DNA from: Candidatus Andersenbacteria bacterium RIFCSPHIGHO2_02_FULL_46_16
GTDB taxonomy: Bacteria > Patescibacteriota > Andersenbacteria > UBA10190
Assembly (NCBI GenBank): GCA_001817065.1
Contig: MHHQ01000009.1
Coordinates: forward strand, 16,211-80,210
Length of the DNA: 64,000 bases
Direction of reading: 5' to 3'
The translations under genes were made by a program, and so were the position numbers. Shown here piece after piece: positions 45,780-62,714 of the stretch. The notes beneath the pieces were generated by a model that worked only from the letters and a program-made list of their open reading frames with translations, did not search any database and was not told where the DNA came from. How positions within the stretch are numbered: position 1 is the first letter of the stretch; every line of letters starts with the position of its first letter.

Positions 45780-46526
45780 TTAACGATGGTCATGCAGGAA
45801 GTGTCCTACTTCCGTACCATACATACGCTGCAGGGTTTCGTTAGTCAGGACTTTGTGGGGAGCACCGGCGCAAAGCAGTCTTCTGTTTAAACAGAGTACT
45901 TGGTCGGCATAATTCATAACGATTTGCAGCTCATGACTGATGAGAACCATGGTTAATTTCTCTTCATGTTGGATGCGAGAGAGGAGGGTATAGATGGTGT
46001 CTTGTCCTTCGGCATCAATGCCGGCAGCTGGTTCATCCAGAAGAAGTACTTTAGGATGGTCCATTAGACTGTAAGCGAGAATAATACGCTGCAGCTGACC
46101 GCCTGATAAAACACTAAGTCGACTGTTGATCAAGTGCCTAGTATTAGTTTTTGCAAGGAGGTCGTGCATATGTCGTTTTTCGATGGGGCTTAAACCCAGG
46201 GGGCGTGGTGATTTTAGAGAAAAGAGACCGGCTACAGTCAATGGGAACTGGTGGTCAATGTTGATGTATTGAGGGATATAGGAAACTAAGGGAGCGATTT
46301 TGTGATATTGGTCATGGTTGGTATCCATTATTTCGACCGTCCCGCTTTGTTTAGGCAACAGATTTAAGATGCATTTGATCAGAACGGATTTGCCGGCACC
46401 ATTAGGTCCAATAATAGCGGTAACTGAGCCAATGGGCACTTGAAAAGATATACCATCGATAATGCGGTGTTTGTCCAGCTCCACAACTAAGTTTTGCACA
46501 TTTAACGCCAGGGTCGGGGTGGTCAT
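45780..46526 (-). CDS. Metal ABC transporter ATP-binding protein (ZnuC-like)
   Basis: Walker A GPNGAGKSVL, signature LSGGQLQR, Walker B LLLDEP. 248 aa. Confidence 0.85.
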   Translation of the reverse strand: MTTPTLALNVQNLVVELDKHRIIDGISFQVPIGSVTAIIGPNGAGKSVLIKCILNLLPKQSGTVEIMDTNHDQYHKIAPLVSYIPQYINIDHQFPLTVAGLFSLKSPRPLGLSPIEKRHMHDLLAKTNTRHLINSRLSVLSGGQLQRIILAYSLMDHPKVLLLDEPAAGIDAEGQDTIYTLLSRIQHEEKLTMVLISHELQIVMNYADQVLCLNRRLLCAGAPHKVLTNETLQRMYGTEVGHFLHDHR

Positions 46527-46563
46527 AAAAAATAATTGTTATTCTTTATGTTACACTAAGGTG

Positions 46564-48297
46564 ATGGTGGATGATAATAATAAAAACGTATTAGTGGTTT
46601 TGGCGGAGCAGGGGCTGATAAAAGGCGAGAGTCAGATTAGTGACATCACGCAGCAATTAGATGGTGGTGCCACCCTTGACCAAGTATTAGTGGAAACAGA
46701 TTTGGTTGAGCCGGAGGCTTTGGCCAAAGTCAGAGCGCAAGTGGCGGGGCTGCCTTATGTGGATTTACGGGAGAAACAAATACCTAAGAACGTACTTGAT
46801 ATTATTCCGGAATCAACGGCACGCGGGCACATGATCATCGCTTATGAGCAGACTGATAACGTGGTACGAGTAGCTATGTCTGACCCAAGCGATCGACAAA
46901 TTGTCGAATTTATCCGAAAGAAGGTGGATCGACCAGTGGAGGTAGGTGTCGCATCGGCGGGGGCGGTGAGGAACACATTAGGTAATTATCAGGAGAGTCT
47001 CGAGGCGGAATTGGATGATGTGGTAAGTAAGGAACTAAAATTGGTAAATGAAATAGTGAATGATTTAGGCAAGGCAGCGGAAGACCTACCAATCGTCAGG
47101 ATTACTCAAGCAATTTTAAAACATGCCATAGTGGAGGGAGCGTCAGATATTCACATTGAGCCAACAGATAAGGACGTCATTATCAGATACCGGGTGGACG
47201 GCATTTTACACGATATGTTGGTATTACCCCGGGCAGTTTTAGCTGGATTAGTAGCGCGGATAAAAGTGTTGAGTAATCTGAAAATAGATGAACATCGGTT
47301 ACCGCAGGATGGTCGATTTATGATTGAGTCGGACGAATATAAAGTGGCTTTCCGTGTTTCCACCTTACCGGTGTTTGATGGTGAAAAGGTAGTAATGCGT
47401 TTGTTGGATGAGTCGGGTAAAAAGTTGAGTTTGGATGATATCGGTATTAGACCGGCCGCTTTAGAACTGATGCGACGGATTATAAAACGTCCACATGGCA
47501 TGGTGTTAGTAACTGGCCCAACTGGATCTGGTAAAACAACCACGTTGTACGCGGCCATGAAAGAAGTTAATACGGCGGATGTTAATATCAGCACTATAGA
47601 AGATCCGGTGGAATACCGAATGCCGCGGATAAATCAAACACAGGTTAAACCGCAGATTGGCCTAACTTTTGCTAATGGATTAAGAGCGCTGGTTAGGCAA
47701 GATCCTGACGTTATTATGGTCGGCGAGATTAGAGATGAAGAGACAGCTTCCTTGGCGATCAATGCTGCCTTAACCGGACATTTGGTTCTGACTACTTTGC
47801 ATACCAACAGTGCAGCTGGCGCGATACCGCGGATGCGAGACATGAAGGTTGAGGCTTTCTTGTTGGCCTCAACCGTAAATTTGATAATGGCACAACGGTT
47901 AGTGCGGAAATTGTGCGTGAAGTGTCGCAAGGAGCGAAAGCTAGACGCGCAGGTTATTGGAGAAATAAAGAAGGAGTTTAATAGTGAAGAAATTTTCAAA
48001 ACCTTAGTAAGGGAAAAAGTAGTGAAAGAGGGCTCAGGCTGGAAGGATGTTGTAATTTACCAGGCAGTGGGATGTAAGAGGTGCCACGATGGATATAAAG
48101 GCCGTATAGGGATTTATGAAACTATGGAGATAACACCGGAGATACAGAAGATGATTAAGCCAAGCGTAACAGCAGAACAAATAGAACAAGCGGCCAGAGA
48201 AAATGATGGCATGGTAAGTATGTTAGAAGATGGGATAATTAAAACGGTGGAAGGTACTACTACGCTGGAAGAGGTGCTTAGGGTAGCGCGAGAGTAG
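46564..48297 (+). CDS. pilB: Type IV pilus assembly ATPase PilB (GspE family)
   Basis: GspE N-terminal domain, Walker A GPTGSGKTTT, Asp box, His box and a C-terminal tetracysteine motif (CVKC...CKRC). Start set at ATG 46564 with an SD (aaggtg), to avoid overlap with the convergent ZnuC-like gene. Confidence 0.85.
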   Translation: MVDDNNKNVLVVLAEQGLIKGESQISDITQQLDGGATLDQVLVETDLVEPEALAKVRAQVAGLPYVDLREKQIPKNVLDIIPESTARGHMIIAYEQTDNVVRVAMSDPSDRQIVEFIRKKVDRPVEVGVASAGAVRNTLGNYQESLEAELDDVVSKELKLVNEIVNDLGKAAEDLPIVRITQAILKHAIVEGASDIHIEPTDKDVIIRYRVDGILHDMLVLPRAVLAGLVARIKVLSNLKIDEHRLPQDGRFMIESDEYKVAFRVSTLPVFDGEKVVMRLLDESGKKLSLDDIGIRPAALELMRRIIKRPHGMVLVTGPTGSGKTTTLYAAMKEVNTADVNISTIEDPVEYRMPRINQTQVKPQIGLTFANGLRALVRQDPDVIMVGEIRDEETASLAINAALTGHLVLTTLHTNSAAGAIPRMRDMKVEAFLLASTVNLIMAQRLVRKLCVKCRKERKLDAQVIGEIKKEFNSEEIFKTLVREKVVKEGSGWKDVVIYQAVGCKRCHDGYKGRIGIYETMEITPEIQKMIKPSVTAEQIEQAARENDGMVSMLEDGIIKTVEGTTTLEEVLRVARE

Positions 48298-48403: not shown

Positions 48404-49621
48404 ATGCCAATATATTCTTTCGAAGGACGGCGAGAAAAAACCGGTGAGGTAATAAGGGGCTTACGTGAAGCGCAGTCTCATGCATTACTGGGTCAAGATC
48501 TTCTAACGGAAGGCGTATTGTTGACGCGCTACACACAAAAAGTCCAACGCTTGCCTGGTGCAACGTTGTATTCAATGATTTTTAATCGTGTGCCGGTAAT
48601 CGAGCGAGTGCTTTTTTCGCGCTATTTTTCTCTGATGTTGCGGGCTGGTATGGATGTTAAGCGGTCACTGCAAGCCCTGCAGCAACAGACGCGCAGTAAA
48701 CCCCTGAAAATGGCTTTAGAGAGTGTTTATCATGATATTGAACGAGGTAGAACGTTAGCGGAAAGTATGCAGGTATTTCCGGCGGCATTTCCTCCGATGT
48801 TTATAAGTTTTATTGAGGTAGGTGAAACAACGGGGCGATTACAAGAGTCTTTAGAAGTATTGGCGAGTCAATTGCAGAAGGAATATGAGCTGCGAAGAGC
48901 GGTTAAGGGAGGGTTGATGTACCCGGCAGTGATTATTTTAGCTTTAATCGCAGTGGCCATTGCCATGATGTTTTTCGTTGTGCCAAAACTAGTGGAAGTG
49001 TTTGAAGGTTTTAATGTGCAGTTACCAATAGCAACGCGGATATTGATATTTGCCAGCGATATTTTTCAAAACTATTGGATGTGGATATTTATAGGTGTTT
49101 TTGTGTTGTTGGTAGGTGCTTGGGGTTTGATGCAGGTAAAATCGGTTTATGCAGTGGTAAATGAAGGACTATTACATTTGCCTATCTTTGGTGGAATTAT
49201 TCAAAAAGTTAACTTGGGCAGGTTCGCGCGAAATTTAAGTTCCCTCTTACAGAGTGGAGTGTCCTTTATTAGGGCGCTGGAGATATTAGGTCAAAATACG
49301 CCACATCCCAGTTATGCTCGCGTCTTCTCTGCAGCGCGAGAGCATGTCAGGCAGGGTAAAGAATTGAGCAGCTTTTTGGCTGATTTTCAACGACTGTTTC
49401 CACCGATTGTAATTAACGTGATTAAAGTGGGAGAGGAAACAGGAGCGCTAGACCAGGTGTTGGCTGAGACTGCTTTGTTTTATGAGAGTGAAGTTGACCA
49501 AACTATGAAGAATCTGACGTCTATCATGGAGCCAATATTAATGGTGGCTGTCGGATTGGCGGTTGGTGCATTAGCGGTGTCGGTAATCTCGCCAATCTAT
49601 GACTTGGTTAATGTTGTTTGA
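48404..49621 (+). CDS. pilC: Type IV pilus inner-membrane platform protein PilC (GspF family)
   Basis: Two GspF repeats and three TM helices. 405 aa. Confidence 0.85.
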   Translation: MPIYSFEGRREKTGEVIRGLREAQSHALLGQDLLTEGVLLTRYTQKVQRLPGATLYSMIFNRVPVIERVLFSRYFSLMLRAGMDVKRSLQALQQQTRSKPLKMALESVYHDIERGRTLAESMQVFPAAFPPMFISFIEVGETTGRLQESLEVLASQLQKEYELRRAVKGGLMYPAVIILALIAVAIAMMFFVVPKLVEVFEGFNVQLPIATRILIFASDIFQNYWMWIFIGVFVLLVGAWGLMQVKSVYAVVNEGLLHLPIFGGIIQKVNLGRFARNLSSLLQSGVSFIRALEILGQNTPHPSYARVFSAAREHVRQGKELSSFLADFQRLFPPIVINVIKVGEETGALDQVLAETALFYESEVDQTMKNLTSIMEPILMVAVGLAVGALAVSVISPIYDLVNVV

Positions 49622-51206
49622 TAAGAGGCAAAGCGAGCGTATTAATCCAGTTTGGCGACAATTCTTGTTTAGTGACGCAAGGGATAATGGTGTAGTTAGC
49701 AAAAGACCGAAGAGGAAAGTGGCTTCGTCCGGCTTTACGATTATTGAGGTGCTGGTGGCAACTTTTGTGATAGGGACTGCAATTGTAGGATTGTTTGGAT
49801 TGTTTGCGTTGGGACTGCGATTAGCTGGAGAAAGCGAGAATAGACTAATAGCTATTGCCTTGGCTAATGAAAAGATGGAGTTAATCAGAAATCTGCCCTA
49901 CGTGGATGTCGGAACGGCTGGTGGAATTCCAGCCGGAACTATAGTGCAGGAGGAGTCGATGGTGCGAAATAACGTTAATTATCTGGTTAAAACAGATATT
50001 CGATATGTGGATGATCCTTATGATGGGGTAGCTAGTGGTGGAGGAACAGGCGGATGTGTTGCTGTAGCGCATACACCGCCAGGGCAATCGACAAATTGCA
50101 ATGACTTGTGTGTTAACAGCTCAGCGGTGAATGCGCATTTAATGCATGGTGATGTGATGGGTAATTGTGATGGTACATACAGCGGACCGGATGTACTAAA
50201 TACCGATTATAAACAGGTAAGAGTAGAGGTCTCTTGGCCTAGTCCGAATGAACCACGGCCGATTTTACTCATCACGAAAGTGGCGCCGAATGGCGTGGAG
50301 GGCGGCGAATTGTTTGGGACATTAGATTTTCTGGTCATTAATAGCCAAGGCTTGGGAGTAACAGCGGCGAATGTCAGTTTAATTAATAGTGAAGTGGATC
50401 CGGCGGTAAACTATGCAACGCAGACCAATAGTGAGGGACGGGTAGTAGTACCGGGGCTACCGGAAGGCGCGCAAAATTATAAATTGATGGTCAGTAAATC
50501 AGACCATACCACAGAGCAGACGTTTGATGTCTTGTCCGACTTTATACCTGACCCGGACCATACGCATTTATCCATGCTAATTGGGGAAGTCACACAAAAA
50601 ACTTTCGTGATTGATCTGGCCAGCTCGTTGCAGATCACTTTTGAAGAGGGTGGGGATAGTGTGGAAAATTATTGCGAGGGAGCGCCACCTCAACCGTTAG
50701 CAGCGATTGATTATAGTTTGCGAGGAACTAAAACGATTGGGATGGATGACGTTGGTGATCCAGTATATGTGTACGATTATGCCGGTGCGTCGGACGCAAA
50801 CGGGCAAAGTAATCATGAAAATTTGGTATGGGATACTTATGAATTAGATCTAGTAGATGGAGTTGTGTGCGATATTAAGGAAACAAGTTTGATCAGGCCA
50901 GTAACTATTAATCCTGGGGAAGATTTAGCCATGACGGTTAAATTAGTGAAGCATACGGAGGTTTCTTTGCACGTAACGGTGGTTGATACGGCGGGTTTGG
51001 CAGTGGACAACGCCACGGTACGCTTGATAGGAGATGGTGCGGATGAAACACTCGGAACCGGACCGTGGGGTCAAATATTATTTGCTGATTTGCCGGCTAA
51101 TGACCAGTTCGTTTTAATAGTGCAAGCGCCTGGTTATGCGGAATGGCAGGATAATGTTGATGTGGAAGGTACTTCATTGGTACAAGTGGTCATGAGCAGT
51201 CTTTAA
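49599..51206 (+). CDS. Prepilin-type (PilV-like) protein with large C-terminal carboxypeptidase-regulatory-like beta-sandwich domains
   Basis: Class III signal ...SSG|FTIIEVLVATFVIGTAIVGLFG, with an alternative GTG start at 49719 that gives a 5-aa leader with GAGGA SD. PilV-like helix. Two CarboxypepD_reg-like repeats (GxxVxxDxxGxxVxxA...PGxYxLxVxAPGY). Confidence 0.7.
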   Translation: MTWLMLFDKRQSERINPVWRQFLFSDARDNGVVSKRPKRKVASSGFTIIEVLVATFVIGTAIVGLFGLFALGLRLAGESENRLIAIALANEKMELIRNLPYVDVGTAGGIPAGTIVQEESMVRNNVNYLVKTDIRYVDDPYDGVASGGGTGGCVAVAHTPPGQSTNCNDLCVNSSAVNAHLMHGDVMGNCDGTYSGPDVLNTDYKQVRVEVSWPSPNEPRPILLITKVAPNGVEGGELFGTLDFLVINSQGLGVTAANVSLINSEVDPAVNYATQTNSEGRVVVPGLPEGAQNYKLMVSKSDHTTEQTFDVLSDFIPDPDHTHLSMLIGEVTQKTFVIDLASSLQITFEEGGDSVENYCEGAPPQPLAAIDYSLRGTKTIGMDDVGDPVYVYDYAGASDANGQSNHENLVWDTYELDLVDGVVCDIKETSLIRPVTINPGEDLAMTVKLVKHTEVSLHVTVVDTAGLAVDNATVRLIGDGADETLGTGPWGQILFADLPANDQFVLIVQAPGYAEWQDNVDVEGTSLVQVVMSSL

Positions 51207-51228
51207 CTGTTGAGAAATATTTATTGCT

Positions 51229-51876
51229 ATGGAGCGTGGCATAGGGCAACAGGGGCAAAGTAGGCAAAGGGGTCTGACAATAATGGAAATATTAGTGGTG
51301 GTATCTATCAGCTCGATAGTACTAATGGCACTACTACGTTTTTTAGTGGCCGGTTATCCTTTGTCAAAGACAATGGTGTTGCAGCAGCGCTCAACAGAAA
51401 CGGCCAGGGTTAATTTGAAACGGATAGTGAAAAGTTTACGCGAGGCTCGCCATTCTGATACTGGGGCGTATCCGTTGGTAGCAACCGAGCCGCAAAGGAT
51501 TGTTTATTATGCTAATGTGGATAGCGATCCGGCGACAGAAAAAGTTCGCTTGGAATTGTCGGGTAGCGACTTGGTCCGGGGCGTAACTAAGCCGACTGGA
51601 GACCCATTAATATATGACCAAAACAATGAGGTGACAGCGGTGATTATCGCTACGGTCAGGAATGGGACAGAGAAAGTATTTAGTTATTACACTGGAGAGT
51701 TCCCGGTGGATACAGGCGAGTTAACGCCAACGGATTTAACTGAGGTTAAATATATTGCATTCAGTTTACTTATTGATGCCGATCCGGCGGTTGAGCCACC
51801 CGCAATTCAGGTAAAGTCACAAGTACAACTGCGTAATTTGAAGACAAATTTAGGTCAAGTGGTGGAGGCGCCGTAA
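51229..51876 (+). CDS. Minor pilin-like prepilin-type protein
   Basis: QRG|LTIMEILVVVSISSIVLMALL N-terminal methylation-type helix. 215 aa. Confidence 0.6.
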   Translation: MERGIGQQGQSRQRGLTIMEILVVVSISSIVLMALLRFLVAGYPLSKTMVLQQRSTETARVNLKRIVKSLREARHSDTGAYPLVATEPQRIVYYANVDSDPATEKVRLELSGSDLVRGVTKPTGDPLIYDQNNEVTAVIIATVRNGTEKVFSYYTGEFPVDTGELTPTDLTEVKYIAFSLLIDADPAVEPPAIQVKSQVQLRNLKTNLGQVVEAP

Positions 51877-51988
51877 AAGTTACCGACGGGGACTATGATG
51901 TCTGACAGAGGCGGAGGACGAAGGGTAGGCAGAGGTGAAGGAGGGTCAGATGTTTTTTATTGTGACGCAATAACTTATAATAACTGCT

Positions 51989-54343
51989 ATGGGGATGATT
52001 AAAAGACAAGCCGGTCAATCGTTAGTGGAAGTATTAGTGGCGGCATTTATTTTGGGCATATTGGCTGTAGCGCTGGCGGGCGTCTCAACTCTGGGAACGA
52101 AAACGGCGGGGGTCAGCGAGCAAAGAACGGTGTCGCAAGCAATAGCTAACAAAAAAGAGGAGATCCTCAAGTTAACACCTTATTTAGATGTTGGTTATGT
52201 AGGGGGGGGAATACCGGACGGTATTTTTGCTGCCAGTGAAATGGTGAGCATGAATAACCAATCCTATGAAGTAAAAATGGAAATTACGATGATTGATGAT
52301 CCGGCGAATGGCTGCCTGGATGCTGGTGGTACTTGCGATGGCAGCACATTAGATGAAGATACGGCGGATTATAAAAGGGTAGTGATTAGTATTAAATATC
52401 CCTCATCTAATAATGCGACAGATGAGGTTAAAGTCACCGTTCTGAGTATGCCTGGCCAAGCGGAAGATTTATTGAATATGGTGGCGTGTGATTCGACTGA
52501 TACGTCGGGATCTTGCGGAGCCGGGAAGATCTGTTGTGACGAAAGATGTTTGCCCAGGTGCGAGCCTGGCTCTTGTCCGTCGGGCTACACGTGCGCAGCA
52601 GATGGATGTGGATGTGAAGTGGAAAGCTGTCCGACCTGTGGCATGGCGTCTTGTTTCGATGACTTTGAGTGCGCTGCCACTAACCAGCAATGTAAAAATG
52701 GTAGTTGTGTATATAAATGCGTTGATGATGGTGATTGCGGGGGAGAGACTTGCGTTTATGGCATCTGTCAATCTTTTTGTATCAACAATGGCGAATGCAA
52801 TGATGACCAGTTTTGCCAAGACGGAGTATGTCATATGAGCACTTGCCTTGATAATTTCGATTGCCGAGTAGGTTATAGTTGTGTTGATTTTCAATGTCAA
52901 CCGACCGACTGCGTCGATGCCGGTTATTGCCAGTCTAATTTCGAGTGCGTCGAGAATACCTGTATGCCGGCCGCATGTTCGACTGGAACTTGTCCGGGCA
53001 GTTGGGAATGTGTGTTTGGCAAATGCCAGCCGCCGCAGTGTACGGCTGCGCAATTGTGTAATGGACGATCTTGCGTGGAAAGCAAATGCCAGCCGCCATC
53101 CTGTGAAAACCATGAACAATGTGGCGGAATAGCTGTTTGTTTAGGCGGGGTCTGTTCAAGCCCACCGGCATGCGGAGCGGGTTGTCCGGTATCACTATCA
53201 TGTGTGTATGGCCAGTGTTATAAACCCAATATGAGCGTGACGCCATTGATTGTTTCCGAAGAGTGTCCGGCACCGCTCGCTTTTCCATGCCTGCCGGCGA
53301 TGGGTGAGATTACGGTGAATTGGCTGCCGGTTGAAGGCCAAAATTATTGTGAGCCAGCGGTAACAATTGGCTCTTGTACGACGGGCGCTGATCCGGCAGC
53401 CCAATGGAGTGATACGGATGGAGATGGAATTACGAATTGCGGAGCGGTTGGGACTACACCAGCGATAAATGCTTGTACACCAATAAATCCCATTGAATGC
53501 GGTGCTAGTTGTCCGGGGTGCCCGAGTTGTCCCGCTAACGAGTCTTGTATAGAAGGCCAGTGTATGCCGGAGCAACCTTGCCCGGTTGGGTATGCTAACC
53601 ACCCGACTATCGATGGAGCATGCGCAGAGGAAGTGCCGGTGGTACCGCCCATTACGTGTCCGCCGGAAATATGTTCTGGCGCAGCTTATTGTTCGGCTGG
53701 CCAGTGTAAGACCGCCGGTTGTTTAACTGACGATCAGTGCGGAGCTCATGGTAAATATTTATGCCGTAATAATATTTGTATACCGTCACTGGCGAGAGAC
53801 TGCGAGTATTGCATTCCAGCAGAACGAATCCAGTATTGTTATCAGGAAGATTGTTCGACTTGCGGCCAGGGGCCTGGTTCGGCATGCACAGATACACTGG
53901 GTAAGCCGAGCGTAGTAGTATGGGCACAGGATAGTGAAATAGGTTGCAACTATTTGAATTGCGAATACGCACCAACTGTCTGCGGTGACGGTATTTTACA
54001 GCCGGGAGAACAATGTGACGCTCCCGATGATAGCAATTGTCCCGGAGAGTGTGGGCCGCAAGGTGGCTCGATTGAACCAGCTTGCCAGTGCCCGGCACCG
54101 GTATGTGGTAACGGAATACTTGAGCTAGATGAGGAGTGTGATGCACCGCAAGATGCCGCTTGTCCAGACCAATGCGGATCTGCTGGAGCGCCGCCATGTA
54201 TCTGTCCGACACAGGCGGCGCCACCTTTATGTGGAAATGGCTTAATAGATACTATGTTTGGGGAAATGTGTGATTGGTCAGTGGGTGATGCTACGTGTCC
54301 AGGAGGTTATTGCCTTGATATATGTGAGTGCGCGTATCCGTAA
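51989..54343 (+). CDS. Giant cysteine-rich prepilin-type protein (PilV-like N-terminus plus ~35 tandem Cys-rich repeats incl. Myxococcus-type disulfide repeats)
   Basis: AG|QSLVEVLVAAFILGILAVALAG prepilin helix. ~110 Cys in 784 aa in CxxxxC-x4-6-C repeats. C-terminal CGDGILQPGEQCDAPDD..., CGNGILELDEECDAPQD..., CGNGLIDTMFGEMCD repeats match the Myxococcus cysteine-rich repeat (TIGR02232-like). Confidence 0.7.
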   Translation: MGMIKRQAGQSLVEVLVAAFILGILAVALAGVSTLGTKTAGVSEQRTVSQAIANKKEEILKLTPYLDVGYVGGGIPDGIFAASEMVSMNNQSYEVKMEITMIDDPANGCLDAGGTCDGSTLDEDTADYKRVVISIKYPSSNNATDEVKVTVLSMPGQAEDLLNMVACDSTDTSGSCGAGKICCDERCLPRCEPGSCPSGYTCAADGCGCEVESCPTCGMASCFDDFECAATNQQCKNGSCVYKCVDDGDCGGETCVYGICQSFCINNGECNDDQFCQDGVCHMSTCLDNFDCRVGYSCVDFQCQPTDCVDAGYCQSNFECVENTCMPAACSTGTCPGSWECVFGKCQPPQCTAAQLCNGRSCVESKCQPPSCENHEQCGGIAVCLGGVCSSPPACGAGCPVSLSCVYGQCYKPNMSVTPLIVSEECPAPLAFPCLPAMGEITVNWLPVEGQNYCEPAVTIGSCTTGADPAAQWSDTDGDGITNCGAVGTTPAINACTPINPIECGASCPGCPSCPANESCIEGQCMPEQPCPVGYANHPTIDGACAEEVPVVPPITCPPEICSGAAYCSAGQCKTAGCLTDDQCGAHGKYLCRNNICIPSLARDCEYCIPAERIQYCYQEDCSTCGQGPGSACTDTLGKPSVVVWAQDSEIGCNYLNCEYAPTVCGDGILQPGEQCDAPDDSNCPGECGPQGGSIEPACQCPAPVCGNGILELDEECDAPQDAACPDQCGSAGAPPCICPTQAAPPLCGNGLIDTMFGEMCDWSVGDATCPGGYCLDICECAYP

Positions 54344-54823
54344 ATGATGTCTGGAGAAGAAGGAATGAACAACAGCAAAAACAATCAGGCGGGCGGGGTG
54401 ATGTTGTTGGTTTTAATAATAATGATAATTTTTATTGTTATTGCGAGCGCTACCTTGCGCTATGTTATTAGACAATCACATGAGACGATTGACCAGGAAC
54501 AAGAGGAGCAAGCGTTTAACGCGGCAGACAGCGGCGTATCGTATGTGTATTGGTTGTTGGATCCGGCAGGGGGACAGAAAGTCGTGACAGATATTCAGGC
54601 GGTAACCAAGACGGTATATGACGACTTGGATGCAGCAATTGGTACGTTTACGATCGATGACATTGTTACAGATACTAACGAAATTGAATTCACATCAACC
54701 GGGAGAGATATTGCACTGCCTGATCGCTGCCAAGTGATACAAGTTCGTTTGCGACAAGTAGAAGCGAATGAAAGGCATGTCTTAACGGACTGGGATAATT
54801 TGGTGGGGTATCCTTGTTCGTAA
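54344..54823 (+). CDS. PilX-N-like minor pilin/pilus assembly protein
   Basis: Hydrophobic N-terminal helix (GGVMLLVLIIMIIFIVIASATLRYV) followed by EQAFNAADSGV, resembling the PilX_N domain. Confidence 0.5.
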   Translation: MMSGEEGMNNSKNNQAGGVMLLVLIIMIIFIVIASATLRYVIRQSHETIDQEQEEQAFNAADSGVSYVYWLLDPAGGQKVVTDIQAVTKTVYDDLDAAIGTFTIDDIVTDTNEIEFTSTGRDIALPDRCQVIQVRLRQVEANERHVLTDWDNLVGYPCS

Positions 54824-54848
54824 TTTAGCAGATAGATCGACAGATATT

Positions 54849-56486
54849 ATGGGAAATCGCCAGCGAGGGAAATTCTGGAAGCTGATCAAGCAGATAGTCA
54901 AAGGGGCTGAGGATGGGGTAACCGTTGTGGAGTTATTGGTATTTATTGGCATCGGATCGGTTCTGATTGCGACGCTAGCGGTGATCGTATCTGGAACGTC
55001 TCGCGTCTCGCGGCAGCAGATGGAGCAAGGAGTAATCACAGAAAAGGCGCGGGTACAATTAGAAAGAATAAGTGATGAAATCCGGAATGCCCAGTATGTG
55101 GACTGTAACTTGGATAGCGATACGGCTGATGTCAATGAATACTGGTTGTACGGCGCGAGTGATTGGGAAATAATTGTTTTAAGCAATGTGGATGATGATG
55201 TGGAAGCAGAACGGGTGAGATATTTTGTGCAGGCTAGTACTACCGGTGAAACAAAGAAGTTAAAGAGGGCGGTGACGCAGCCAGGTGCATCATTGTGCGA
55301 TTTTTCACCTAATTCTGAAAATATCACAACAGTCCTAGATGGTTTAGTAAATGTGACACTCGACCCTGACAGGCCGCTTTTTCAGTATTTCATGAGTGGC
55401 CAGGATGCAGCCCGTTTAACCACGCCGGTGATACGATTATCGAGCGTGCTTAGGGTGAGGTTGCATTTAGTAATTGACGAGGATATAAACACCGATCCGG
55501 CGCTGGTGGAGGTGGTGACTGATGTGGTACCGCGCGGCGTGGAGGATCCGGGAGCATGTGTGATCAATAGGGTTGATTTTTATCGATACCATATGACCGA
55601 ATCGTTTGCCGATGCCGCTTTTATTTCATGTCAGTCTCATTGCCTAGGGATAGCAGTGCTACCGCCTGGTGAATGTTGTCCCTGGTCAACGGCTTTTTAT
55701 CTGGATTCAGCTACTGGCTGGGTGTGGTCCACGTGCCAGTGCGCTGATACCTATTTGCCGCCGGATATAATTCCAGAAAATGTTAATCTTAACCAATATA
55801 CGTCTTCTGTGAGAGGGTGTTTGGACGGAACCAGATGCGCGGGGCTAAAGGGCGAGGCGGTCTGTGAGGCAGGCTGCCTAGACACACCAGGAGAATGCGT
55901 GTGTGTTTGTCCGGCCGGATTACCGCCGACGACGGCGTGCAATGACGGGGTTGATAATGATGGGGACGGGACGGCAGATTGTTCGGGTTGTGGCGGTGTG
56001 GCGGGTTTATTAGATGATCCAGGATGTTCGGGTTACGGCGATAGCTCAGAGTGGGGCACCACCCAATGTGATGACGGTATCGATAATGACGGTTGTAACG
56101 GAACTGACTTTAAGATTAACGGGACCGGAGATATTGACTGTGTTGATCCGGCGGATGACGACGAAGGCCCTTGTTTGAGTGGTTCTCCGTCAGGTTGCGT
56201 GCCAACACAGATTCCGAGCATACCACAATGCAGTGATGAATTGGATAATGACTGCGCAGGTGATGGGATTGATTATGCCGGTGGGGCGGGGGACTTGCAG
56301 TGCCAAAATATTAACGATAATAATGAATGGTCAATCAACAAGCAGTGCAATGATGGGTTTGATAATGATGCAGACGGGACAGTTGATTGTTGGTGGCTAT
56401 TTTGTGCTAGATTAAGACCTGATGATAAGTCCGCGGACACTGATTGCACCGGTCCAAATGACGACAGTGAGTTTTCGGATGTATAG
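54849..56486 (+). CDS. Prepilin-type protein with C-terminal MopE/thrombospondin-type-3-like Asp-rich Cys repeats
   Basis: AEDG|VTVVELLVFIGIGSVLIATLAV prepilin helix. The C-terminal 200 aa contain CNDGVDNDGDGTADC, QCDDGIDNDGCNGTD, CSDELDNDCAGDGID and QCNDGFDNDADGTVDC repeats (putative Ca/metal-binding, C.DG.DNDCDG..D). Confidence 0.65.
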   Translation: MGNRQRGKFWKLIKQIVKGAEDGVTVVELLVFIGIGSVLIATLAVIVSGTSRVSRQQMEQGVITEKARVQLERISDEIRNAQYVDCNLDSDTADVNEYWLYGASDWEIIVLSNVDDDVEAERVRYFVQASTTGETKKLKRAVTQPGASLCDFSPNSENITTVLDGLVNVTLDPDRPLFQYFMSGQDAARLTTPVIRLSSVLRVRLHLVIDEDINTDPALVEVVTDVVPRGVEDPGACVINRVDFYRYHMTESFADAAFISCQSHCLGIAVLPPGECCPWSTAFYLDSATGWVWSTCQCADTYLPPDIIPENVNLNQYTSSVRGCLDGTRCAGLKGEAVCEAGCLDTPGECVCVCPAGLPPTTACNDGVDNDGDGTADCSGCGGVAGLLDDPGCSGYGDSSEWGTTQCDDGIDNDGCNGTDFKINGTGDIDCVDPADDDEGPCLSGSPSGCVPTQIPSIPQCSDELDNDCAGDGIDYAGGAGDLQCQNINDNNEWSINKQCNDGFDNDADGTVDCWWLFCARLRPDDKSADTDCTGPNDDSEFSDV

Positions 56487-56638
56487 TGGTATCGCCGTCT
56501 CCTACTATTCCGATACCGACTCCCTAGTCTTCGACTACCTTATTTTTTCTCTGTGCTTGACGATGTACGGTTCAATGATTCGATAATATAAGGATGGGAA
56601 AAATAACGGTCCGGCAGAAGAGTGATTGATGATAGCGA

Positions 56639-56864
56639 CTATAGACATCACATCATAAAATGTCACTGCAGAATAAGCGGGTGGCGGCGCGGGGGTCCCC
56701 CACCGAGCGCCAGCAGCCCTGAGCCTGCCTACCGGTAGGCAGGCTTGTCGAAGGGCGATGCCGTCGGGTGGGGGGAGCAGCGCCGACAGGCCTGCGGGCC
56801 GAAGCCATAGCGAAGGCTGGACCCGTTTCTTGTCTGGTGGCTTTTCATGATGTGACACCTATAG
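56639..56864. mobile_element. MITE family 2, copy 2 (TIR-flanked GC-rich core)
   Basis: TIRs ctatagacatcacatcataaaatgtcac / gtggcttttcatgatgtgacacctatag. The core shares aagcgggtggcggcgcgggggtcccccaccgagcgcc and gccgtcgggtggggg.gcagcgccgacagg with copy 1. Confidence 0.5.
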
Positions 56865-56971
56865 TTAGGTGGTTATATAATTACCAGATCACGCCTTAAC
56901 GATGGTACTAAAGGGATATTATAAAGAAAGACATATTTGCCGAAAGTTAGGAAAAAGGCTAAACAAAATAA

Positions 56972-58510
56972 ATGGGGCACCTAGCGCAACTTTATGAATG
57001 GCGAAACTGGTCAAGCAAGACTTGGCTAGTTTTAATTTTGCTGACAGCCAGCGTGGTTACCCATTTTATCTGGTTTGGTTATCCTACGCAGGTAGTGTTT
57101 GATGAGGTGCATTTTGGTAAGTTTGTGACGGCATATTGCTGCACCCACCAACGTTTTTTTGACATTCATCCCCCCCACGCCAAGTTGTTAATCGCTGGTA
57201 CGGCATATGCCTTAGGCTATCGGGGCGGGGTAAGTTTTGAGAATATAGGTCAAGACTTTGGCAGTGTGAGTACGTGGCCACTGCGCGTTTTTCCGGCAAT
57301 AACTGGAGTGCTGTTACCGCTGGTTATATATGCATTACTTAGGCAATTAAAGGCGTCAGCCGCAGCGGCGTTTTTTGGCGGCATGCTGGTTGTGTTGGAT
57401 AATGCGTTAACGGTGCAGACAAGGATGATCGCTTTAGACGGTTTATTACTAGTGTCAACCTTTGGAGCGCTGGCGGTATATTTAGCAGCGAGAAAAGAGA
57501 TGCAGCAGTACAGAGAGTCCCCAGATCAGAATGGAGGACAAAGCAACTGGTGGAGTAGGTTGACTGGCGGGATCAGGATGCGACGAGAGGGGTGGATGTT
57601 TGGTCTAGCGGGGGGTCTGGCTGGTTTAGCGGTGGGTACCAAGTTTACAGGGCTCACAGCCGGTGGATTGTTAGTGCTATTGTTGGGTGCGTGGCTGGTG
57701 CAGATTAGATCATGGGGGGAAATTAAGCGGTGGAGGACAGCGGTGGTGTTTATAGTACTGGCGGCGATCGTGGTGTATGGGTTGGGCTGGATGATACATT
57801 TTATGATTTTAACGGAAGCAGGGGACGGGGACTTGTGGCGCAAACCACAATGGGAACAACCGATCATGGCTAGTTTTTGGCGGGAGACAAAAGCTATACA
57901 CAAATTAATGTATGACGCTAATAGTGGATTAAAAGCGGAACACCATGATGCCAGCCATTGGTGGTCTTGGCCTTTAGTACAGACCCCGGTATTTTATTGG
58001 CAATTGAGTCAGAACGAAGGAGGGGTAAGTCGATCGGGATCGATCTACTTCCTGCCAAATCCGATTTTGTGGTGGGGTACATCCGCCGTGTTTGCGGTAA
58101 TACTTTTATCGATGCTGATAACGGGGGTAAACAATTTAGTCAGATGGCATGGCGGGTGGCAAAAGAGAGTCGGGCGAATGAGGCAGCAGTGGCAACAGTC
58201 GTTCTTGAAACAAGCATGGTTACCGTTAATGGGCTATGCAGCATCATATATACCATTAATGAAAGTGACGAGAGTGTTATTTCTTTATCACTATCTGACA
58301 CCATGGTTGTTTTCACTATTGGTGGTGGTGTTGTGGTTAGAACGAATAGGCTGGATTGCACGGGAGGAGATAGTTGATCAGCCAAAGAGGTATTGGTTGG
58401 TACTAGCCATTATCCTTGGTGCCTTTATATTTTTTAGTCCACTGACATACGGATTTCTATTGTCGGAAGTGAGCCGGAGCTGGCTATTTTGGTTTAAGAC
58501 ATGGTTGTAA
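56972..58510 (+). CDS. PMT-family (GT39-like, dolichyl-phosphate-mannose-protein mannosyltransferase-type) integral-membrane glycosyltransferase
   Basis: VVFDEVHFGKF...FFDIHPPHAKLL, the loop-1 DE motif and flanking residues characteristic of protein O-mannosyltransferases. About 11 TM helices, 512 aa. Confidence 0.75.
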   Translation: MGHLAQLYEWRNWSSKTWLVLILLTASVVTHFIWFGYPTQVVFDEVHFGKFVTAYCCTHQRFFDIHPPHAKLLIAGTAYALGYRGGVSFENIGQDFGSVSTWPLRVFPAITGVLLPLVIYALLRQLKASAAAAFFGGMLVVLDNALTVQTRMIALDGLLLVSTFGALAVYLAARKEMQQYRESPDQNGGQSNWWSRLTGGIRMRREGWMFGLAGGLAGLAVGTKFTGLTAGGLLVLLLGAWLVQIRSWGEIKRWRTAVVFIVLAAIVVYGLGWMIHFMILTEAGDGDLWRKPQWEQPIMASFWRETKAIHKLMYDANSGLKAEHHDASHWWSWPLVQTPVFYWQLSQNEGGVSRSGSIYFLPNPILWWGTSAVFAVILLSMLITGVNNLVRWHGGWQKRVGRMRQQWQQSFLKQAWLPLMGYAASYIPLMKVTRVLFLYHYLTPWLFSLLVVVLWLERIGWIAREEIVDQPKRYWLVLAIILGAFIFFSPLTYGFLLSEVSRSWLFWFKTWL

Positions 58511-58782
58511 AGATGAAACATACTCAAAACACCCTCCTACGCTAAAGCTACGGATGGGCAGGCAAAGCATAAAACTCAGACAAAGCACAGGTTATTATAA
58601 ACTTTCCAAACCATAACAAATCGGTAACAAACTTAACAAACAACAGACACGAAAATTTCAAGGTCCATCCTGCCTAAAAGCTTCTGACGGGATCCCCTCA
58701 GGACAATTATTAAATAATGACCACTGACCTTGCCTTCCCGTAAGCCGTGGGGGTAAGGTAGGCGATGTGATATTATTAAGGG

Positions 58783-60171
58783 ATGAATAAGAGGAGGACA
58801 GACGGGTGGAGCAAGGGTGGCGGCGTGTTGGTGATGACACTGGTGTTTGTGAGCATGTTCTTAGTGATTTTTATTGGTATCTCTGGCATGGTGAGCCGGA
58901 CTTATCATGAAACGGTTCTCCAGGCGCATGACGAATTGGCTTTTCAGGTGGCCGAGGCGGGACTAAATTATGCACGATGGAGATTGGCTCATAATGGTGA
59001 TGATTTAGCAGCGGCGGAGGGCGTGTTAACAGATCAGTTAGCGGGTGATTTGGGTGAGTATGAATTGACGTTTGCGCAATCGCAGCCAGGCAATTCGGTA
59101 ATCAGAATAACTTCAGTAGGAACCACCTTAAGCCAACCGATGAGGCAAGTGACCTTGAATGCATTATACGGAAAGCCTTCCTTGGCGCGTTATGCTTCCA
59201 TTACTAACAATGATGTTTGGTACGGAGGAACCATTTCTGGTCCGGTTCATGCTAATGGGGGCATTAGAATGGACGGACAGTCAGATAGTTTAATGACCTC
59301 AGCTAAAGAAACCTATGCCTGCCAGCCTTACCATGGATGTTCATCGCCTTATCAAACTAAGCCGGGTATTTGGGGGACGGGTGAAATACAAGAACTGTGG
59401 GAATGGCCAGTAACCAATGTGGACTACGCTTCGATTACCCTAGATTTATTGGATATGCGTGCGGCCGCTGATGAAACCGATACGCACTATGGGTCATCCG
59501 GTGGCTTTGGTTATCAGATAGAGTTTGCCAGTAATAATACTTACTCCATTTACAAGGTGACGAAGAGAGGATCAAATATTTGGTCCTGGACTCATGAAAC
59601 GGATTGGCAATATACGTCGCATGATGTGGGTAGTAAAACATTAATTGAAACAAGGGCAGTGCCGTCAGGTGGAGTGATTTATTTAGACGATAGGACTTGG
59701 GTAAAAGGAGATATTCGTGATCGGGTGACGGTGGCGGCTGGTGTTTCTCCGGCAACCCCGTCTACCAATGTTGATATCATAGTCAATGGAAATATCAGTT
59801 ATGGCGATGTGCATGATGGGACACGGGCTTTTGCTGCTGTAGCGCAACGGCATATTCAAATTCCTTGGTCTGGTGTACCTGATAATATGCGTATGGATGG
59901 AGCATTTGTTGCCCAGAACGGATCGTTTCATCGGCGATATTATCCGAATTGCTGTGGGGCACAAGCCCATCGTCTAAAGACAAGCTTAACGCGGTTTGGC
60001 ATGGTGGCAAGTAACGGGGTGCCGGCCACGGCGTGGCTCGAGAACGGCAATATAGTTAGCGGTTTTAGATCGGGCCAGGCTACTTATGATGCCAACCTAC
60101 TTTATGGTCCACCACCTTATTTTCCGGCCAACAGCCAATATGAATTAATCTCTTGGGAGGAGGACCAGTAG
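58783..60171 (+). CDS. PilX-N-domain pilus-associated protein with large C-terminal domain
   Basis: GGVLVMTLVFVSMFLVIFIGISGMVSRTY...AFQVAEAGLNYARWRL matches the PilX N-terminal domain. 462 aa. Confidence 0.6.
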   Translation: MNKRRTDGWSKGGGVLVMTLVFVSMFLVIFIGISGMVSRTYHETVLQAHDELAFQVAEAGLNYARWRLAHNGDDLAAAEGVLTDQLAGDLGEYELTFAQSQPGNSVIRITSVGTTLSQPMRQVTLNALYGKPSLARYASITNNDVWYGGTISGPVHANGGIRMDGQSDSLMTSAKETYACQPYHGCSSPYQTKPGIWGTGEIQELWEWPVTNVDYASITLDLLDMRAAADETDTHYGSSGGFGYQIEFASNNTYSIYKVTKRGSNIWSWTHETDWQYTSHDVGSKTLIETRAVPSGGVIYLDDRTWVKGDIRDRVTVAAGVSPATPSTNVDIIVNGNISYGDVHDGTRAFAAVAQRHIQIPWSGVPDNMRMDGAFVAQNGSFHRRYYPNCCGAQAHRLKTSLTRFGMVASNGVPATAWLENGNIVSGFRSGQATYDANLLYGPPPYFPANSQYELISWEEDQ

Positions 60172-60514: not shown

Positions 60515-61543
60515 ATGATAGGCATTGATATCTCAGACGGGTCAATCAAATTAGTACAACGATCAAAGACGGAAGGGGATATGTTGCAGTCTTTTTGTTG
60601 GCGGGTGATTGAAGAAGGAGTGATAGAACGAGGTGTTATTGTTGAACCTAAGAAGCTTCGCCAAGCGATTGTGCAAACTTTTGAACAATGCCATCTTGAA
60701 GTAAATACAGATGATGCGGTGGTGGCATCAATTCCAGAGACACAGTCTTTTCTGCGTGTCATTGAGGTGCCGGATATGACGGACGAAGAAACGGACGAAG
60801 GAGTGCGCTGGGAAGTAGCCCAGCATATCCCCTTTGGCTTGGAAAATGTTTATATTGACTGGCAACCCATTCCCCGTGGTCACCAGGCGGCGAAGGGGAT
60901 TAGAGAGGTGCTGGTTGGCGCTGCCCAGAAAAAGGTAGTTGATCCGTTGTTGGCAGTATTGAAGGATCTGGACTTGGATGTGGCGGCGCTGGAGTTGGAA
61001 AGCCAGGCAATTGTTCGTGCTTTAATATCACCGGAACTGCAGAACAAACAAGGTATGCTGATAGTCGATTTAGGTGGCAGTGCGACGAATGTCATTATTC
61101 ATGATCATGGAGCGATGAGATTTACGGCTAGTTTGCAGCACGGGGTAAGAAGAATAGCTGAAACATTGTCGCATAAAGACAAGGAAGAATTACTAGTGCC
61201 CACCACCACAGATATACCGACAGAATCGGCTAATCGGATCGCGGAAGCAATGCGACCAGCACAAGAGGAATTAGTGATGGAGATTAAAGGAATTGTAGAA
61301 TTTTATAACGGAATCGATGACAAACATGAGGTGACGGAAATATTATTGACTGGCGGTGGATCTAACTACCCGGGTCTGGATCGAGTGGTCGCCAAGTATT
61401 TTGATGATGTGCATGTACAGCGAGGCAATCCCTGGGTGAATTTGTTACCGCACAACCAGATGAGCAAGGCGCCTATGTCACTCAAAGAGTCGGTGCATTT
61501 TTCCACGGCGATTGGTTTGGCATTAAGAAAGATAGACGCATGA
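60515..61543 (+). CDS. pilM: Type IV pilus assembly protein PilM (actin-like ATPase fold)
   Basis: MIGIDISDGSIKLV start and DLGGSATNV in the second actin-fold half. 342 aa, followed by pilN/pilO-like genes. Confidence 0.8.
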   Translation: MIGIDISDGSIKLVQRSKTEGDMLQSFCWRVIEEGVIERGVIVEPKKLRQAIVQTFEQCHLEVNTDDAVVASIPETQSFLRVIEVPDMTDEETDEGVRWEVAQHIPFGLENVYIDWQPIPRGHQAAKGIREVLVGAAQKKVVDPLLAVLKDLDLDVAALELESQAIVRALISPELQNKQGMLIVDLGGSATNVIIHDHGAMRFTASLQHGVRRIAETLSHKDKEELLVPTTTDIPTESANRIAEAMRPAQEELVMEIKGIVEFYNGIDDKHEVTEILLTGGGSNYPGLDRVVAKYFDDVHVQRGNPWVNLLPHNQMSKAPMSLKESVHFSTAIGLALRKIDA

Positions 61544-62073
61544 AGGACGACATAAATCTCTTACCAAAACAGCTTGTAGTAGGTCGAGAAAGACGAGCAT
61601 ATTTGTTCGGATTTGGTCGTTTGCTCCAGCGAGTAGCCTTTTTACTAGCGGCTATTATTTTGGGAGAGGCGATAATTTATGGCGCTTATTATTATTTCGA
61701 TTATACGTTAGAAAAGAGCTGGAACTCGCAGGTACAAAGTATGAGCGCTACTTTGGAAACACAGAATATGAATGATTTATTGACGTTGGTGGACACTACA
61801 CGGAAACAGTTTGTGAGCTGGTCTTTGTATAGTGAAGAGGTGCTAAATAGTGCGCCGAGAGAAATCACTATTAGTAGATTGGAAGTAAAGGAAAATCTAG
61901 GTGTTTTAGAGATTGATGGTTATACCAGCCGGCGGTCGTCTGTGTTGGAGTATAAAAATATTTTAGCTGGGTTGAGCTGGGTCGACCAGGTGGAAGCACC
62001 GCTGCAGAATTATGCAATTGGGCCTGATTCTGGTTTTTCGCTTAGCTTAGTTGTTGATGAAGGAAAACAATGA
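61540..62073 (+). CDS. pilN: PilN-like pilus assembly protein
   Basis: N-terminal INLLPK motif, single TM, ~175 aa. Start overlaps the pilM stop. Confidence 0.6.
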   Translation: MKDDINLLPKQLVVGRERRAYLFGFGRLLQRVAFLLAAIILGEAIIYGAYYYFDYTLEKSWNSQVQSMSATLETQNMNDLLTLVDTTRKQFVSWSLYSEEVLNSAPREITISRLEVKENLGVLEIDGYTSRRSSVLEYKNILAGLSWVDQVEAPLQNYAIGPDSGFSLSLVVDEGKQ

Positions 62074-62714
62074 AATCATTGCGCTTGAAAAAACTAATTA
62101 TTACCCGGGCGATTGGGATCTTCATTGTAATTTTGTTGATAGCGCTGGTAATATATGCGGCTAAATTAGTGCAGGGGGTGAGGATTCGATTAATGGAGCG
62201 ACAAATAAAAATGGAAGAGAGTCTGGATGAGGCAGTGCATCGGGCAGTGGTGGCGGATACGTTAGTGCAATATGAAAAAGAGATGAAGCGCGTGAGAGGT
62301 ATTGTTCCCTGGCGTGATGAAATTGGACAGGTGGTCGAGACAGTAGATGGCGAAGCAAAACGTTGGGACGTCGCTGTACTGGTGCCGAAAATTAGCGAAG
62401 AGCCAATATACGATGAGAGTGGCATGGTTATTGCGCAAACTGGGCCGACTCGCTTGATTCGTTTAACGGTTGAAGCAGCTGGTGGTCCATGGGCATTGAT
62501 TAATTTGTTACATAGCCTGGAAAGCTTGCCTTACTTAATGAGCCCGGTGTCATATGTGCTTGATAACGAAGCAGATGAGATAAATGCGTTTGGTGCAACA
62601 GCTTTGGCACCAGCTTTACCACTCTCCAAAGACACAGTGAAAACAATGCCGGTGCAGCTGGCTATATTGAAAGCAGATTTTTTACTAACCATCAGAGTTG
62701 AGGAGGGTAAATAA
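62070..62714 (+). CDS. PilO-like pilus assembly protein
   Basis: Single N-terminal TM, coiled-coil region and periplasmic domain. Position after pilN and an overlapping start. Confidence 0.45.
   Translation: MKSLRLKKLIITRAIGIFIVILLIALVIYAAKLVQGVRIRLMERQIKMEESLDEAVHRAVVADTLVQYEKEMKRVRGIVPWRDEIGQVVETVDGEAKRWDVAVLVPKISEEPIYDESGMVIAQTGPTRLIRLTVEAAGGPWALINLLHSLESLPYLMSPVSYVLDNEADEINAFGATALAPALPLSKDTVKTMPVQLAILKADFLLTIRVEEGK

Follow-up and report, generated by a model that had tools for sequence, protein, structure and literature searches.

A 545-aa protein encoded on a contig of Candidatus Andersenbacteria bacterium RIFCSPHIGHO2_02_FULL_46_16 (GenBank assembly GCA_001817065.1, contig MHHQ01000009.1, positions 16,211 to 80,210; this whole stretch of 64,000 nt is called the window here, and all nucleotide positions are counted within it) is probably a modular minor type IV pilus subunit of this uncultivated, ultrasmall member of the Patescibacteria (the Candidate Phyla Radiation, CPR), displaying calcium-stiffened modules. 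Its open reading frame (ORF), 54849-56486 on the + strand, agrees exactly with the description given in an earlier reading of the same DNA (hereafter the original prediction), and the product is identical (100%) to the NCBI entry “hypothetical protein A3G57_00665” from a Candidatus Andersenbacteria metagenome-assembled genome, with full-length homologues sharing 49-67% identity. The protein is composed of four parts: a prepilin leader comes first, then the pilin domain (aa 24-236), next an unnamed 14-Cys module (aa 237-362), and finally a series of acidic Cys/Asp units (aa 363-543). The borders between these parts follow the AlphaFold2 (AF2) model and those family members whose sequence stops at aa 200-226 or ~350 (Table 1).

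Four acidic units are found within the last 183 aa of the protein, starting at C364, C407, C461, and C500, and all of them have the core C.[DE][GE][VILF]DND in common. Since only 36 of 100,000 composition-preserving shuffles of this segment contained even one such core, the presence of four copies is far beyond chance. The original prediction had counted at least four units of the stricter pattern C.DG(V/I/F)DND(G/C)(D/N)G..D; the number of units holds, and the stricter pattern fits unit 1 only, as unit 4 has Ala in place of G/C, unit 2 reads DNDGCNGTD, and unit 3 reads DNDCAGDGID. The strict form D.D.DG occurs at aa 369 and 505, and in all four units the DND core is located between conserved Cys. 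The segment consists of 38 Asp, 5 Glu, 16 Cys, and 5 Lys+Arg with neither His nor Met, which gives 43 acidic vs. 5 basic residues in the tail. Eight canonical repeat Cys, together with C450 of the linker between units 2 and 3 and C469 of unit 3, are conserved in six out of six homologues, while the other Cys of the linker, C442, is kept in two of the six; the AF2 confidence (predicted local distance difference test, pLDDT) falls below 50 at aa 446-448 of this linker. Unit 4 is split by an insertion, CWWLFCARLRPD (aa 514-525, nt 56388-56423), that is specific to the target and absent from all aligned homologues; it is hydrophobic and basic, brings in two extra Cys, and is modeled by AF2 as a short helix. 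An origin of this insertion as a frameshift artefact was considered and rejected, because the reading frame runs through it and both alternative frames are interrupted by stop codons.

Judged by sequence, these units are degenerate and enlarged copies of a widespread bacterial repeat, since the profile of the canonical repeat aligns end to end (model positions 1-32) with all four of them, with one insertion in each. The profile was built from 208 distinct units of the recovered proteins, which have a period of 32-36 aa, and its consensus, qCxDGxDNDGDGxxDfPxDPGCxxxxDxxE, includes two invariant Cys. The corresponding entry in NCBIfam is NF033662, “acidic double-disulfide repeat” (acid_disulf_rpt), which matches the target with an E value of 2.6e-6 at 27 bits, the best stretch being aa 497-514 in unit 4. 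Of the 53 proteins recovered in the first search, 52 are also matched by this model (best 3.5e-87), as are 15 of 47 members of the pilin family to which the target belongs (best 2.6e-20). The target shares with NF033662 the core and its spacing, C-x-D-G-x-D-N-D-G-D-G-x-x-D ... D-P-G-C ... D-x-x-E. It differs in the length of the units (36-45 aa vs. 32-36 aa), which start 43, 54, and 39 aa apart, and in having extra Cys at C378/381, C416, C442/450, C469, and C514/519. An exhaustive search with the repeat profile counted 3,027 representative proteins at E ≤ 0.001, and most of the matches listed were repeat-only proteins of up to 5,567 aa. The family name carries no function.

A possible function of the repeat is suggested by solved structures. 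When the repeat profile was searched against them, the best match was the C-rich domain of human teneurin-4 (7PLP; 49 residues, E 0.0029), followed by the EF-hand loops of calmodulin and S100B (E ~0.07-0.1), and no MopE or thrombospondin chain was found among the matches at E ≤ 10. The full-length profile gave a weak teneurin match as well (E 0.11), and a phmmer search with a single relative that carries nine clean repeats (P0011) retrieved nothing from the solved structures. In a profile-to-profile alignment by hhalign, the repeat profile matched the core of the teneurin, diatom, and Volvox sequences tabulated by Tucker et al. with a probability of 98.1 and a score of 49.6. As 200 column-shuffled controls scored 9.3 ± 2.6 with a maximum of 19, this match depends on the order of residues and not on their composition. 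The conserved spacing that the original prediction had proposed to look for is accordingly seen twice, in the alignment of the units to NF033662 and in their alignment to the calcium-binding core of the teneurin C-rich domain.

The core common to the two is 21-23 aa long, C-x-D-x-x-D-N-D-x-D-G-x-x-D-(C)-x-D-P-x-C, and all of its Asp and Asn are Ca2+ ligands in the teneurin crystal. The structure of the teneurin-4 domain, determined at 1.5 Å, contains three Ca2+ ligated by E835, D840, D843, N844, D845, D847, D851, D854, and D856, the coordination at sites I and II being that of thrombospondin type 3 repeats and at site III that of low-density lipoprotein (LDL)-receptor A modules (PMC9058538). 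In the target, the side-chain ligand positions D840-D856 are kept at 7/8 in each of units 1, 2, and 3 and at 8/8 in unit 4, and the Cys that follows the loop, a teneurin-like feature, is retained in units 1 and 4 as C378 and C514. Only hard oxygen ligands are on offer, because the repeat region is devoid of His and Met. From the sequence and by analogy with teneurin, the four acidic repeats probably bind calcium, and this function, which the original prediction had put forward, is the most reasonable reading of them. The differences are also clear. The teneurin domain is a single copy, has six Cys paired 1-3, 2-5, and 4-6 and a conotoxin-like tail, and is part of a eukaryotic adhesion protein and not of a pilin, whereas units of the bacterial repeat follow one another in tandem, each with two conserved Cys and an invariant Glu at its end; the target units have 2-4 Cys, at other positions. 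The link of a widespread, uncharacterised bacterial repeat to a calcium-bound crystal structure of 1.5 Å makes its function testable.

The original prediction had named the tail after MopE and thrombospondin type 3. As far as the motif goes the resemblance holds, and it is supported by analogy through the teneurin core, but membership of the two families was not supported, so that both labels appear to be wrong or too loose. The Pfam search that it had proposed was negative: PF11617 (the MopE-type model, gathering threshold 27 bits, whose InterPro entry we take to be IPR021655) had no match on the whole protein at E ≤ 1 nor on the repeat region or each unit at E ≤ 10, and the TSP_3 hidden Markov model (HMM) had none on the target, the repeat region, or the units at E ≤ 10, nor among the 53 relatives. 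Like the thrombospondin type 3 repeats (TSP_3; thrombospondin-1, 1UX6), the target has tandem Asp-rich DxDxDG-type loops, predicted to bind calcium and to be stapled by disulfides; unlike a true member, it has no HMM, profile, or Foldseek match to them, so the likeness is one of coordination chemistry and not of family membership. The DxDxDG loop between Cys is a motif shared with TSP_3, and is not a proof of belonging to it. Dockerins were also considered, as they too have EF-hand-like loops, and were set aside since in dockerins these loops are flanked by helices and have no conserved Cys pair.

That the protein is of prepilin type, as had been claimed, is borne out by its N-terminus and by its setting in a pilus operon. 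The N-terminus reads ...KGAEDG/VTVVELLVFIGIGSVLIATLAVIV, or in the shorter form ...AEDG/VTVVELLVFIGIGS (the slash marks the predicted cleavage), with Gly at -1 and Glu at +5. The cleavage motif, G23/VTVVE28, is also found by a strict prepilin regular expression, and E28 is invariant among eight aligned homologues. The target's own scores are sub-threshold both for Pfam N_methyl (E 0.29) and for TIGR02532, and the latter model matches 23 of the 47 pilin-family members (best 4.4e-6). An AF2 model of the target, made from a 47-sequence alignment, has a mean pLDDT of 80.8 and shows a helix at aa 26-79 followed by a β-sheet at aa 100-226, which is a pilin-like shape. Invariant in the globular pilin domain are the pair C86/C150 and the loop VDCNLDSDTAD..E.W (aa 84-99). 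A Foldseek search with the full model against solved structures gave a best match of E 0.2 with a root-mean-square deviation above 15 Å, which is meaningless, and no solved pilin resembled the model. As to the class of minor pilin, PRK10557 (PpdB, which we take to be GspJ-like) matches 27 of the 47 family members and the target with E 0.017 over aa 17-85 only, and other minor-pilin models match fewer of the 47 (HpsC 13, PilV 10, GspH 9, ComGF 7, GspJ 5). Because the matches cover the N-terminal helix alone, a J-type class (PilW/GspJ/PpdB-like) is only weakly indicated for the target.

The gene is located between those for PilB/PilC and PilM, together with five other pilin-like genes. This gene order is conserved on three other contigs that bear a homologue (L001, L002, and L003), and the order in the PilM region (the 462-aa gene, PilM, and two downstream ORFs) is the same in L002 and L003. 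A narrow-alignment scan of the genomes of species representatives retrieved one locus only, the taxonomic range being poorly sampled.

Nowhere is the pilin family as a whole more conserved than in the loop just behind the N-terminal helix (aa 84-97, window 55098-55139). The target has VDCNLDSDTADVNE here and the wider family VDCNGDGxT....E.W, with D85, C86, N87, D89, D91, T92, D94, and E97 invariant in close homologues. Its pattern resembles that of a DxNxD(G) calcium-binding loop, in this case within the pilin domain, and C86 is probably paired to the invariant C150.

Since members of the family differ in their C-terminal modules, the pilin scaffold is read here as a carrier of interchangeable modules. 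The counts refer to the proteins collected in this study, sorted by three sub-profiles, of which 55 have this pilin domain: 20 carry the Cys module only, 10 the repeats only, seven (the clade of the target) both, and 18 nothing or something else. Half of these last, nine proteins, end within ~40 residues past the pilin domain, and the other nine have further C-terminal extensions of ~110 to 900 residues. Further additions are seen within the clade of the target, where LVIVD repeats follow the acidic repeats in a protein of 909 aa (P0007) and GLUG motifs follow the Cys module in another (P0008). The acidic repeats also occur in 139 collected proteins without this pilin domain. Moreover, a different, PulG-annotated pseudopilin (P0034) carries five clean copies, and the repeat must thus have been grafted onto pilins more than once.

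Such an arrangement is known from modular pilins, in which functional modules grafted onto a pilin module are displayed, probably at the tip of the filament, and of which 1,219 with 264 architectures have been catalogued (Raynaud et al., 2021, PMC8179133). The target conforms to the definition of a modular type IV pilin, having a pilin module and then separate modules that are not specific to pilus biology. Its architecture is absent from that catalogue because Pfam recognises neither its Cys module nor its repeats. Catalogued pilins with IPR021655 number 3 of the 1,219, always after IPR006860, and the neighbour at 49599-51206, a pilin with PF13620, has the third commonest architecture of the catalogue. 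The closest parallels in design are PilB (vWA) and PilC (lectin) of Streptococcus sanguinis, where a pilin module at the N-terminus likewise displays C-terminal modules, and the module of this PilB depends on a metal ion. Minor pilins that bear C-terminal domains have a share in the host binding of Saccharibacteria (PMC11623550); PilX1 and PilX2 of TM7x are, like the target, patescibacterial minor pilins with large C-terminal accessory domains, and PilY1 of Pseudomonas is a calcium-binding tip adhesin (PMC11623550). PilY1 proteins with N-terminal IPR021655 or IPR003367 modules are listed in dataset S2 of Raynaud et al. However, the accessory parts of PilX1/PilX2 and PilY1 are a β-jelly roll and β-propellers and not Cys/Asp repeats, PilY1 is not a pilin, and no sequence relationship was found between the target and PilX1, PilX2, or PilY1. 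The finding extends the known idea of modular pilins; it overturns nothing and is not a new kind of system.

The unnamed Cys-rich module (aa 237-362) is modeled confidently by AF2 as a small α/β fold, and all of its 14 Cys are kept in six out of six full-length homologues, as are all 16 Cys upstream of the repeats; the target has 32 Cys in total, an even number. The module has no Pfam match and no significant match among solved structures, either by sequence or by Foldseek, and a match to NPC1L1 over this region (full-length profile, E 0.57) was rejected as insignificant. It is present in 27 of the 55 family members and, among the proteins collected, is fused to this pilin family only. Its identity among homologues is 52-63%, compared with 50-67% for the repeats.

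A mechanism can be proposed that builds on the gene, its operon context, the domain architecture of the family, the identity of the repeat, and its conservation, and in which cleavage, tip location, disulfides, calcium binding, and an adhesive role are predicted steps. A prepilin peptidase would cut after G23, and the helix (aa 24-79) with the globular pilin domain (ending at aa 236) would anchor the subunit in the filament, where it would most likely join a priming or tip complex with the adjacent PilV-like and PilX-like minor pilins. Two extra modules would hang from the pilin domain, the 14-Cys fold at aa 237-362 and the acidic units at aa 363-543. Each acidic unit would form a DxDxDG/EF-hand-like loop bracketed by two conserved Cys, and outside the cell it would bind about two Ca2+ through Asp and Asn side chains and be locked by disulfides. 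A floppy and highly negative tail would thereby become a stiff, protease-resistant, exposed anionic surface, which may have a part in attaching the pilus to a substrate or a partner cell.

Several observations weigh against this reading. The target scores below the curated cut-off of NF033662 (27 vs. 41 bits), and the insertion in each of its units is located between the DNDGDGxxD loop and the DPxC element. One ligand has been lost in unit 2, where C416 replaces the equivalent of D847, and because the canonical unit has two Cys vs. six in teneurin, neither the teneurin disulfide pattern nor its third calcium site is transferable. The AF2 models of the repeats are moderate (pLDDT 50-80), the lowest confidence in the protein, and Foldseek with a repeats-only model returned 0 matches among solved structures. 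A literature search on the name of the NF033662 repeat retrieved no papers and no experiments for bacterial members. Judging from the sample name, the source was a low-oxygen aquifer, and no disulfide-forming enzyme was identified in the scanned parts of the window, so that the oxidation of the 32 Cys is an assumption. The tip location and the GspJ/PilW class follow from weak matches confined to the N-terminal helix. Finally, a direct role of the repeats in contact or binding is plausible, and it is a guess.

Other explanations of the same protein have to be considered. The repeats might be a calcium-stiffened or disordered spacer or decoration, with the functional part being the Cys module or another minor pilin. 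Elsewhere the same repeat mostly makes up extended arrays in the interior of the chain (as many as 19 matched stretches, protein length reaching 5567 aa) that accompany Ig-like, DUF11, or sorting domains, as is typical of stalks, 20 members of the family bear the Cys module and no repeat, and the low AF2 confidence of the repeats would fit such a role. On the contrary, the repeats of the target form its C-terminal end with nothing beyond, and because they end the protein they are not a spacer for another domain; ten family members carry them directly on the pilin with no other module, and they are as conserved as the rest of the protein. We regard this possibility as rather unlikely, though not one to be neglected. 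A reading in which the repeats are true PF11617 MopE-type motifs, binding copper or another transition metal, with the pilin as a metal-scavenging or redox-active appendage, seems improbable. The target does share with PF11617 the short consensus C.DG.DN.CDG..D, with DNDC in unit 3 and DNDCDG in units 2 and 3 of homologues, and Tucker et al. aligned the same teneurin core with the PF11617 consensus (PMC3278476), which favors it. PF11617 also touches two of the 53 relatives at E ≤ 0.01, weakly (E 0.0015), covering profile positions 15-29 of 30 in one of them (P0035), and sixteen Cys could bind soft metals if they were still reduced in an anoxic habitat. Against it, the PF11617 model fails on the target at every level, MopE chains are missing from the structural matches, and the copper site of MopE is made of two His and a Trp-derived kynurenine (PMC3423442). 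As the repeat region (aa 363-545) has no His, such a site cannot form, and the conserved Asp, Asn, and Glu are ligands of hard ions.

It could also be argued that the target is not in pili at all, and is either a surface protein, secreted or anchored in the membrane, or a pseudopilin belonging to a secretion-type machine, its N-terminus being only prepilin-like. The sub-threshold scores of the target for N_methyl and TIGR02532, a 23-aa leader that is long for a type IVa pilin, and the lack of any solved pilin resembling the model are in line with this, as is the result that no gene for a major pilin or a prepilin peptidase was found among the window ORFs scanned. However, G-1 and E+5 do not vary among homologues, TIGR02532 recognises half of the family, the gene keeps its operon position and order with PilB, PilC, PilM, and the other pilin-like genes, and the helix-plus-sheet of the AF2 model is the shape of a pilin. 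We hold this alternative to be highly improbable, and since a pseudopilus is still a type IV filament, most of the explanation as a modular minor pilin would stand even then.

Nearly all Patescibacteria possess type IV pili, the leading candidates for the means of finding and holding hosts in these tiny episymbionts. To our knowledge, almost nothing is known outside Saccharibacteria on which parts of the pilus grip. A conserved minor-pilin scaffold of Andersenbacteria with interchangeable modules that domain databases do not see thus supplies concrete candidates for host recognition. It is tempting to think of the scaffold as a cassette carrier, in which the conserved N-terminal 220 aa are fixed and the C-terminal modules (the Cys module, the calcium repeats, an LVIVD propeller, GLUG, and other long extensions) are swapped between lineages, such that the modules would decide which host or surface is gripped by the pilus of an episymbiont, and attachment could be switched by ambient Ca2+. 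In this full form the idea is speculative, and we consider it distinctly unlikely. Side gains of the analysis are a family of carrier pilins with swappable modules in Patescibacteria, an unnamed Cys-rich module, and 7PLP as a structural template for the repeat.

Table 1. Parts of the 545-aa protein and genes of the surrounding pilus locus, with positions in the window
Feature	Position	Strand	Evidence
Target gene, 545-aa modular minor pilin (probable)	54849..56486	+	ATG to stop, stop codon included
Prepilin leader, aa 1-23 (MGNRQRGKFWKLIKQIVKGAEDG), predicted cleavage after G23	54849..54917	+	G-1/E+5 pattern G/VTVVE
Hydrophobic N-terminal α-1 helix, aa 24-79	54918..55085	+	AF2 helix 26-79
Globular pilin β-sheet domain, aa 80-236	55086..55556	+	AF2 strands 100-226, pLDDT ~90; invariant columns; family-wide pilin profile matches
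Unnamed Cys-rich α/β module, aa 237-362, 14 Cys	55557..55934	+	AF2 pLDDT ~90; Cys conservation
Acidic unit 1, aa 363-403 (ACNDGVDNDGDGTADC..DDPGC..DSSEWG), 9-aa loop insertion with C378/C381	55935..56057	+	Repeat profile 17.2 bits; 7/8 ligand positions
Acidic unit 2, aa 406-441 (QCDDGIDNDGCNGTDF..GDIDC..DDDEGP)	56064..56171	+	Repeat profile 7.0 bits; 7/8 ligand positions, C416 at D847 equivalent
Linker, aa 442-459 (CLSGSPSGCVPTQIPSIP), C442 and C450	56172..56225	+	Homologue alignments
Acidic unit 3, aa 460-495 (QCSDELDNDCAGDGIDY..GDLQC..DNNEWS), DNDC as in MopE-type consensus	56226..56333	+	Repeat profile 10.1 bits; 7/8 ligand positions
Acidic unit 4, aa 499-543 (QCNDGFDNDADGTVDC ... ADTDC..DDSEFS)	56343..56477	+	Repeat profile 15.2 + 6.7 bits; 8/8 ligand positions
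PilB, pilus assembly ATPase	46462-48297	+	NCBIfam TIGR02538, 2.5e-163
PilC/GspF platform protein	48404-49621	+	NCBIfam TIGR02120, 3.2e-84
PilV/GspI-like pilin with CarboxypepD_reg domain	49599-51206	+	HMM matches
PpdB-like pilin, 215 aa	51229-51876	+	HMM matches
784-aa Cys-rich pilin-like protein, PilV-like N-terminus, 98 Cys	51989-54343	+	HMM match, prepilin N-terminus only
PilX/ComGG/GspK-like protein, 159 aa, without E5	54344-54823	+	HMM matches
PMT-family (GT39) membrane glycosyltransferase	56972-58510	+	Pfam PMT 5e-31, PMT_4TMC 9.6e-34
462-aa protein, N-terminal hydrophobic segment without E5	58783-60171	+	
PilM	60515-61543	+	TIGR01175, 1.2e-40
Two ORFs downstream of PilM	61540-62073, 62070-62714	+	No Pfam match

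Among the neighbouring genes, the 784-aa Cys-rich protein had been placed directly next to the target by the original prediction, which is not the case, as the 159-aa PilX/ComGG-like gene intervenes; its further statement that the locus encodes two different Cys-rich pilin-like proteins is supported, the neighbour with 98 Cys having none of the repeat cores of the target. This neighbour is 12.5% Cys and ends in three CG(D/N)G(I/L)(L/I)...E.CD units at aa 665, 706, and 748 (nt 53981-54268). Its counterpart is an intact 775-aa ORF in L003, while in the syntenic JGI contig L001 (6857-9487) it is called as several tiny genes of 33-136 aa, which could reflect a disrupted gene, a problem of assembly, or a problem of gene calling. 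The six pilin-like genes (49599-60171) are, in order, I-like, J-like, I-like, X/K-like, J-like (the target), and X/K-like, as read from weak N-terminal matches and the presence or absence of E5. They might form a pair of I-J-K triads and, with these, either two tip complexes or a double one.

The PMT gene downstream of the target adjoins the target homologues in L001, L002, and L003 also, and a sigma-70-like site (11/12 near-consensus, 56852-56881) is located just upstream of it. The presence of a gene for a protein O-mannosyltransferase-like (PMT) enzyme in a minor-pilin cluster suggests O-glycosylation of pilins. Elsewhere in the window, a fusion of a NeuB-family nonulosonic-acid synthase with a xylose-isomerase-like TIM barrel (18643-20526) and a CMP-sugar cytidylyltransferase-like gene (24172-25086) were found, which may supply sugars for the glycosylation of surface proteins or pilins. 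An Rfam scan of the window gave no family at gathering score. Over the entire window (1-64000), every 2-kb block has a positive GC skew (0.17-0.33), and the + strand bears most of the long ORFs.

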